Assembly: GCA_964604015.1 (NCBI GenBank)
Contig: CAZRXF010000012.1
Span: 137,955 to 201,954 of the forward strand
Source: an uncultured Pseudomonadota bacterium
Lineage (GTDB): Bacteria > Babelota > Babeliae > Babelales > CAIQNR01
Direction: 5' to 3'
DNA: 64,000 bases
Position numbers and translations under genes: made by a program. How positions within the stretch are numbered: position 1 is the stretch's first letter; the number at the start of each line of letters is the position of its first letter. The notes beneath the pieces were generated by a model, which saw only the letters and a program-made list of their open reading frames with translations, was not told the DNA's origin and did no database searches. Shown one piece after another: positions 31,621 to 32,469 of the stretch.

Positions 31621-32469
31621 AGGGGTGTATTGCCACCCCTTCTTAATCCCTACTTTTTTACTCTCATCTTTCTTTTGCACAAGAAGTAAGTATGCGCTCT
31701 GCGCGCAGCACCAAGGGGGTACTTGTCTACCCCTTTGGAATCAGGACACAAACGTGCCGTTTGATCGCTTTTACGGCTCCAATCGTTCGTTGCGCCCTGT
31801 CGGTCGACAACTCAGTTCCGCCTGATGAGGAGTGACTAATGTGGGGGCTGAAAAAATTCACTCTTTCCGAATTGGAGTTGCTTTTGCCTGTGACCCTACA
31901 CTCTCACAACGTCGTCACCAGCGATACGTAGTGAGCGTCGGTGATCCAGTAGCATTGTAAAAATCATTATTGTGTCATTCCCAAAAAAGGAGATTTATCG
32001 ACCGAATGGTAGGGAAATCTTTAAGACAAATAAATGACATCTTCGATACCTCAATAAAGAGGAATTTGTTCTGTTACGTCTGGATTCCCGTACCACTTAC
32101 AGAGTCTGGTCAGAGCGCTTTGCACTCTGCTGCGACTCTGTTCGTTGGGAATGACACAAGGAAGAAATTATTCCTCATTAGGCGGAACTGAGTTGTCGCC
32201 CGTCAGGGCGCAAGGAGGATTGGAGCCGACAAGGGGTCCAGAGGAACAGCTGGTGCCCTGTTTTAAAAGGGGTGGGCAAGCACCCCTTTTACGCTTGCCC
32301 TGCGTAAGGGCATACCTACGTCTTGAACGAAAGGCGTATTTTGTGAGAGCCCACAAAAAGGGACCGCTTTGGTGCTGCGCGCAGAGCGCATACATACGTC
32401 GCGTGCAAAACAACAAGGCAGAAATGTTCAAAAGAAAGTAGGGTTTCAGAGGGGTGGCGATACACCACC
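31621..32469. repeat. Foldback repeat element, expanded copy (long imperfect inverted-repeat arms flanking a ~330-bp core)
   Basis: The left arm 31621-31838 is the reverse complement (by eye about 70-90 percent) of parts of the right arm 32172-32469. The outer ends AGGGGTGTATTGCCACCCCT and AGGGGTGGCGATACACCACC are mutual reverse complements. The left arm is about 90 percent identical to 48250-48448. Confidence 0.85.

Follow-up and report, generated by a model that had tools for sequence, protein, structure and literature searches.

REP sequences are 20-40 nt long with one hairpin and a conserved 5' GTAG tetranucleotide, and are mobilised by RAYT (TnpA-REP) transposases of the Y1/HUH type, the genes of which typically stand between REPs. 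Arranged as REPINs, or as BIMEs in enterobacteria, they occupy intergenic, non-coding DNA as inverted doublets with a predicted fold in ssDNA or mRNA. Compensatory changes are common across the stem of REPIN hairpins (PMC3116915). MITEs such as Correia, ERIC and the Coxiella QMITEs (PMC5896051, PMC10969869) are smaller than 1 kb, intergenic and without ORF, and have inverted ends, with a target-site duplication and a related autonomous IS that shares the TIRs as further hallmarks. Rickettsia palindromic elements (RPE) are palindromic, structured selfish repeats of obligate intracellular alphaproteobacteria, 100-150 bp in length and often in-frame within genes. Action at the RNA level is known for repeats of the REP, Correia and RPE types. 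The ends of IS200/IS605 elements, PATEs and integron attC sites function as folded single strands of DNA, in which structure, bulges and extrahelical bases matter while the primary sequence can covary freely.

The repeat family described here has features in common with each of these systems. It is previously undescribed and no database holds it. The starting point was a window of 64,000 nucleotides, i.e. the whole stretch of DNA analysed, in which an initial annotation had pointed to paired substitutions between two copies of a small hairpin, here termed hp3.

Elements, modules and host

The core sequence GGGGTRCTTGYCYACCCCYTT is found five times in the window, compared to none expected by chance. 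The five copies fall into three intergenic elements, A (~31622-32469), B (~38810-39099) and C (~48257-48691). Each has a pair of convergent arms, 5' ends outward, and the extent of interior deletion differs between the elements.

Element A (31622-32469) is bounded by terminal GC hairpins at 31622-31639 and 32451-32469. Its left arm, of type 1 (31642-31845, + strand), is identified by a covariance model (CM) match of 214.5 bits, by nhmmer and by pair counts. It contains the hairpins hp1 (31693-31707), hp2 (31711-31738), hp3 (31749-31763) and hp4 (31790-31810). The right arm is of type 2 (32158-32366, - strand, CM match 116.5 bits) with hp3 in the form CCAG-CTGTTCCT-CTGG. Its outer side carries the 5' part of a truncated type-1 arm (32361-32414) as well as an AT-rich hairpin. 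In element C the type-1 left arm (48257-48459, + strand, CM match 208.7 bits) again shows hp1 (48307-48321), hp2 (48325-48352), hp3 (48363-48377) and hp4 (48404-48424). It is followed by a right arm (48457-48668, - strand, CM match 163.7 bits) with hp3 in the form CCAA-CGGTTCCC-TTGG and, beyond this arm, by a terminal hairpin (48672-48689). Element B (38810-39099) consists of two convergent, internally deleted arms (+ arm ~38832-38906, - arm 38887-39056) that have kept hp1 and hp2 without hp3, and it ends in a terminal hairpin at 39079-39099.

Right arms of the window genome are composite: a truncated arm and an AT-rich hairpin are joined to a second arm. Arm pairs are 71-91% complementary and the elements measure 300-850 bp, i.e. 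inverted ends and small size as in MITEs. Two convergent arms, the doublet arrangement of REPINs, are present at all five sites of the window genome and at three of the four sites of the clade around L018, a related metagenome contig introduced below.

The element ends (31622-31639, 32451-32469, 48672-48689, 39079-39099) show a GC-rich hairpin followed inward by a T-rich tract and resemble inward-facing intrinsic terminators. A gene for a 1564-aa protein on the - strand ends close by, its stop codon being 13 nt upstream of the hairpin at 48672-48689. This gene is one of three consecutive large ORFs (1564, 884 and 1197 aa; 48702-59637, - strand), and its product has no Pfam match. The ends of two Logan contigs fall within the 1564-aa ORF (window positions 51709 and 52172), a hint of repeats inside it or of variation between strains. 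Another ORF of 613 aa (39878-41719) is very rich in Gly, Ala, Ser and Pro and has a G+C content of 0.51 compared to ~0.44 around it. It carries no Pfam annotation and may encode a secreted or surface low-complexity protein.

Further repeats are interspersed with the arms. A second family with the short TIRs TGTGTCATTCCC and GGGAATGACACA and a subterminal GGTAGGGRAATCTTT is found in the window (31970-32160) as well as in the related loci L033 (10697-10718 and 11478-11499) and L018 (7035-7045). In element A it lies between the two arms, but in L033 both arms are flanked by it, and in L018 it comes after the single arm. Hence the two families are mutually nested. A third module (…GTCGTCACCAGCGATACG…AGTGAGCGTCGGTGATCCAG…) occupies 31908-31965 and 32081-32155 of the window, is found again in L018 (11967-12224) as a palindromic repeat of ~260 nt and is also present, rearranged, at L033 10720-10790. 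The organisation is BIME-like, one of mosaic intergenic repeats and not that of a single RNA gene.

Searches against known families gave no relatives. With Rfam, no tRNA, rRNA, riboswitch or other family reached threshold in the whole 64-kb window, and permissive thresholds on element A returned chance-level matches only (E ≥0.5). Annotated plasmids and phages show no similarity to the element. A hammerhead motif considered at 31823 (CUGAUGAG) was rejected, being neither conserved in copy C nor matched in Rfam. No sigma-70-like promoter was found in or beside element A. One reading frame is free of stops across four window arms (31616-31825, 48233-48439, 32168-32431 on the - strand and 48530-48724 on the - strand; 64-87 codons) and has probably arisen by accident of composition. 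In the L018 clade this frame is not conserved, and the only ORFs of the elements are short, unconserved and without homologue. Moreover, a profile of the open frame matched no protein at E≤0.1 among 5.8 billion, which also argues against coding.

For comparison we used 16 homologous arms from the window, from a second locus of its genome (L029), which adds two sites, and from four related metagenome genomes. These are L018, a JGI metagenome contig, and L032, L033 and L035, genomes close to L018 which all have the element at the same TsaB-RsmE junction. L029, L032, L033 and L035 were reached via the genes adjoining the copies. The CM and nhmmer recover the same 16-17 arms and no others in 230 kb. 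Copy number is modest (5 sites in ~96 kb), and a ~14 kb extension beyond the window contains no further copies. An exact module-3 pattern has no match in species-representative genomes. An anchor scan independent of the hairpins gave seven single matches in the genome collection and nine in the metagenome collection, of which L018 alone is clearly homologous and L008 weakly so. The element was not found in species-representative genomes by exact-pattern and anchor scans, and the viral collection gave no match. The region L008 3012-3095 (CAYUHH010000089.1, a MAG labelled 'uncultured Pseudomonadota') is a weak homologue of hp2-hp3 from a third lineage (CM 30 bits, E ~7e-6). It has several A·C stem mismatches and may be a decayed copy.

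For the HD-domain protein encoded next to element A, the best named relatives come from Ca. Tisiphia (49%) and Ca. Finniella (47%), along with other Holosporales MAGs. Judging by its flanking genes, the window belongs to an uncultured Rickettsiales/Holosporales-like intracellular alphaproteobacterium. Independent short-read metagenome assemblies of the organism break inside the arms, namely at window position 31745 (ends of L001 and L002) and at L029 12593 (end of L030), as is consistent with a multi-copy repeat.

Paired substitutions and covariation of hp1-hp4

The hairpin pointed out initially reads CAAACG-TGC-CGTTTG in copy A (31749-31763) and CAATCC-TGC-GGATTG in copy C (48363-48377), and both sequences were recovered at these coordinates. 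The two copies indeed share the TGC loop and a 6-bp stem, and each version folds as a hairpin. As had been claimed, the four differing positions constitute two compensated pairs without any other difference in the hairpin: A-T is replaced by T-A (31752 A>T with 31760 T>A) and G-C by C-G (31754 G>C with 31758 C>G). The flanks, put at ~90% identity by the initial annotation, belong to a direct repeat (31655-31839 and 48270-48453) which we measured at 92% identity over 185 aligned columns with 14 substitutions and 1 indel. Simulating 14 random substitutions on 185 nt yields at least two compensated doubles in the hp3 stem with a frequency of 3.25e-5, and in any of four curated stems with 2.3e-4. 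The paired substitutions between A and C are real and not a product of chance. Two stem differences between A and C are single-sided, and both toggle between Watson-Crick and G·U on the arm strand.

The predicted energy of hp3 amounts to -4.2 (copy A) and -5.5 kcal/mol (copy C) as RNA, and to -4.7 and -4.1 kcal/mol, respectively, as DNA. Swapping the stem arms between the copies (two chimeras) abolishes the hairpin, with 0 to -1.5 kcal/mol remaining. Minimum free energy folds of the whole arm do not always include hp3; the alternative in copy C is a CAGGA/UCCUG pairing. Hence it is the comparative evidence and not the folding of single sequences which carries the case.

For 14 arms covering hp3 we constructed a flank-anchored alignment in which the stem columns are fixed by position, indels are confined to loops and bulges, and each row was verified against the real sequence. 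Four of the six hp3 pairs show change on both sides: position 1 varies between C-G, A-U and U-A, position 2 between A-U and C-G, position 4 between A-U, G-C and U-A, and position 6 between G-C, C-G and A-U. Of the hp3 cells, 85.7% are paired. Taking hp2 and hp3 together, 92.8% of cells are paired compared to 75.9+/-1.4% after shuffling, and 11 of 17 pairs are changed on both sides; none of 500 shuffles equals either value. Sliding the 3' partner reduces pairing to 27-54%. The values for hp4 are 90.3% paired compared to 79.3% in shuffled alignments. Those for hp1 are 97.7% and 72.2%, from a structure-anchored and thus more subjective alignment.

Since the flank-anchored alignments were curated by hand, the test was repeated without curation. 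Given a plain MAFFT alignment with six of the arms, RNAalifold independently predicts hp1-hp4, hp3 included. A CM built from this MAFFT/RNAalifold alignment was then used to align the 16 arms. This alignment, which is biased towards the structure of its model, has 88.6% of its cells paired compared to 74.2+/-1.0% in shuffles, and 29 of 41 pairs show two-sided change compared to 12.6+/-2.3. None of 500 shuffles equals the real alignment on any of five measures, two of which are robust to relatedness. The result agrees with the flank-anchored one for the hp3 helix. As the three approaches agree, the covariation conclusion is safe for hp1-hp4.

The collected arms contain hp3 in eight stem versions and two forms. 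A 6-bp stem with TGC loop occurs as CAAACG/CGTTTG, CAATCC/GGATTG, CAAACA/TGTTTG, CAAGCA/TGCTTG, TAAACG/CGTTTA and CAAACC/GGTTTA. The other form has a shorter stem of 4-5 bp and a larger NNGTTCCY loop (CCAG/CTGG, CCAA/TTGG, AAAAC/GTTTT, CAAA/TTTG). Two forms are likewise seen for hp4, and all four combinations of hp3 and hp4 forms are present, which implies module exchange between copies. Loops and linkers are fairly conserved, i.e. CTTGYC in hp2, TNYGC in hp1, GGCTCCAATC and CAACTCAGTTCCGCCT. The TGC loop of hp3 is found in eight arms and the inverted GCA never. An extrahelical base (A, or G in L018) is kept in all nine arms with hp4, three arms show the same C·T mismatch in hp4, and a bulged C is kept in hp2 of several arms. 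The leader 5' of hp1 reads GTAGGTA in some arms and GTAAGTA, GTATGTA or GCATGTA in others. Among 395 stem cells 364 are Watson-Crick, 5 G·T, 10 A·C and 16 other, and double changes are split evenly into 16 of transition type and 16 of transversion type.

The initial annotation proposed that secondary structure, be it in RNA or in single-stranded or cruciform DNA, is maintained over primary sequence. With more copies and covariation statistics this holds up: the stems stay paired, against independent variation of their positions, and hp3 follows this behaviour with its four doubly changed pairs. Based on the aligned sequences, hp3 is one of at least four predicted stem-loops held paired by compensatory change in an arm of ~190 nt.

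Additional pairings and functions were considered and rejected. A long-range 4-bp helix (GGRC/GYUC) is predicted, yet G·U pairs predominate in it and its variation is what independent change would give. A closing helix between 5' ACUCUCAUC and 3' GAUGAGGAGU appears plausible by eye in three arms; RNAalifold does not predict it. A consensus scan flags hp3 as an intrinsic terminator, but the type-2 arms have no T-tail.

Probable mobility and nature of the proposed folded strand

Neighbouring genes allow a comparison of filled and empty sites. The PPIase-HD spacer, which holds element A, measures 1,022 nt compared to 215-275 nt in four relatives (70-74% HD-protein identity), and across the relatives only the promoter-proximal ~95 nt can be aligned. 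Conversely, the TsaB-RsmE junction is 2 nt long in the window genome (L029) and 414-813 nt long and element-filled in L018, L032, L033 and L035. All copies are intergenic, and the genes on either side of an element may be divergent, tandem or convergent. The short-read contigs that end within arms also speak for mobility.

Within the L018 clade, arms at the same site share 61-77% identity, approximately as the third codon positions of TsaB (59-69%). The left arm of element A shows 83% identity to arms of L018 and L033, although TsaB of these hosts is only 59% identical to that of the window's host in amino acids and 42% at third codon positions (saturated). Such a star-like pattern cannot result from vertical descent and points to transfer between lineages or to recurrent seeding by conserved master copies.

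No transposase, Y1/HUH included, is present among the Pfam gene annotations of the window or of ~409 kb of related loci. A tblastn search for Y1/HUH (RAYT) with approximate query sequences over the ~409 kb, a small part of each genome, gave no match. No full-length IS with these arms occurs in the loci examined or the collections scanned. Target-site duplications and exact termini could not be defined from the empty-site spacers of the relatives, since these are too diverged.

On balance, the sequences appear best explained by a hairpin-rich, non-coding, non-autonomous mobile repeat family with the folded single strand as functional form, a reading we consider somewhat probable. By analogy, its mobility would resemble that of REPINs, BIMEs and MITEs. 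An arm consists of at least four local stem-loops with fairly conserved loops and with stems that vary freely as long as they stay paired. We infer that a factor provided in trans recognises the single strand in its folded state, such that only fold-competent lineages propagate. Surviving copies would for that reason differ by compensated pairs, as A and C do. Their hp3 versions may descend from different fold-competent variants or may have exchanged modules with them, and exchange of hairpin modules between copies probably contributes.

The strand in question is somewhat more likely to be DNA exposed in replication or transposition than a transcript. Rare wobble pairs together with equally frequent transition-type and transversion-type doubles lean towards a DNA constraint or templated mutation over RNA, and the scarcity of G·U weighs but little against RNA with 16 sequences. 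In a strand test of G·T versus A·C mismatches, whole elements seemed to have G·T in excess on one strand (10:2). This was dismissed as post-hoc noise, because it depends on the arbitrary orientation of the loci and does not match the replication strand (L032 and L033 show opposite GC skew).

A doubtful but still credible alternative is that each arm represents a structured RNA or a cis-acting RNA module (small RNA, terminator, insulator or stabiliser) selected at its own locus. Four distinct hairpins with conserved loops (CUUGYC, UNYGC, UGC/GUUCC) and the conserved hp4 bulge are more elaborate than known REP/REPIN ends and would suit a structured RNA too, and the strength of covariation matches that of curated RNA families. 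The terminal GC hairpins with T-rich tracts facing inward, one of them 13 nt past the stop of the 1564-aa gene, and the Watson-Crick/G·U toggles in both single-sided A/C stem differences point in the same direction. However, G·U makes up ~1.3% of stem cells and is not commoner than A·C, and transversion-type doubles are as frequent as transition-type ones. Neither a promoter-like site nor an Rfam relative was found, arms of either orientation are found whatever the intergenic context, and the sole predicted long-range helix is unsupported by its variation. Moreover, co-located arms drift at approximately the synonymous rate.

Alternatively, the compensated stems could be a mutational by-product of template switching during replication or of hairpin-templated repair in quasi-palindromes, by which a mutation on one side of a stem is copied to the other without selection on structure. 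We regard this as unlikely. Template switching is documented to create and maintain hairpins with several compensating changes per event (PMC8794818). In agreement with this, the stems are nearly all Watson-Crick without an excess of wobble intermediates, pair flips are common, and the sequence as a whole drifts near-neutrally while pairing persists. Yet such events should erase bulges and mismatches, and the extrahelical base and C·T mismatch of hp4 and the bulged C of hp2 are retained. Conservation of the hp3 loops, with TGC never inverted, also speaks against this route (PMC8794818), which is thereby weakened. In addition, four hairpins kept across diverged lineages and arms of 83% identity need more than a mutational bias.

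That the arm, with its four or five hairpins, is a new structured RNA and not a passive DNA repeat, and travels with or directs its own mobility (for example as guide, scaffold or ribozyme-like module) in an unrecognised transposition system of intracellular alphaproteobacteria, seems very improbable. Finally, a mere coincidence of independent substitutions, conceivable as long as the comparison rested on two copies only, is refuted by the simulated frequencies (3e-5 for the hp3 stem, 2e-4 for any stem) and by the recurrence of the pattern across 14-16 further arms.

Returning to the reading as mobile repeats, the family, from an uncultured endosymbiont clade, provides a clean natural example of structure kept without sequence conservation, with four stems and 29 of 41 pairs doubly changed in only 16 copies. 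Arms of 83% identity between hosts with saturated synonymous divergence point to an exchange of small mobile DNA between intracellular bacteria, with a bearing on how reduced genomes acquire and tolerate selfish elements. As the family breaks short-read assemblies, the model should be useful for binning and scaffolding.

Comparison with known repeat systems

Each of the systems introduced above covers a part of what is seen here. Like IS200/IS605 ends and attC sites, the arms are predicted to be structures in which extrahelical bases are kept. The ends of IS200/IS605, however, are not mutual inverted repeats and adjoin tnpA/tnpB, and an attC site is one imperfect palindrome that belongs to a gene cassette; none of these contexts is found here. 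With the Rickettsia palindromic elements the family has the palindromic structure and the type of host in common, but it is set apart from them by description, all copies being intergenic.

The resemblance to MITEs is closer. It comprises the size below 1 kb, the lack of an ORF, the inverted ends, the intergenic location, the filled and empty sites and the nesting of elements within one another. In contrast to the short TIR of MITEs, the inverted repeat is a whole structured arm of 190 nt, and neither a target-site duplication nor a parent IS was found here.

REPINs and BIMEs likewise are intergenic, non-coding inverted doublets with stems kept by compensatory change, mosaic modules that vary in order and orientation, and single arms or truncated doublets. 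Here, however, an arm of ~190 nt with at least four distinct hairpins takes the place of the short REP with its one hairpin. GTAG precedes the first hairpin in some arms only, unlike in short GTAG-REPs, the DNA sampled contains no RAYT gene, copy density is modest and the host is Rickettsiales/Holosporales-like. As the short GTAG-REP unit is lacking and the loci sampled show no RAYT gene, we call the element REPIN/BIME/MITE-like and not a REPIN. Should the folded strand prove to be RNA, or should a cognate enzyme be found, the REPIN/RAYT-type paradigm would extend to a far more elaborate substrate.
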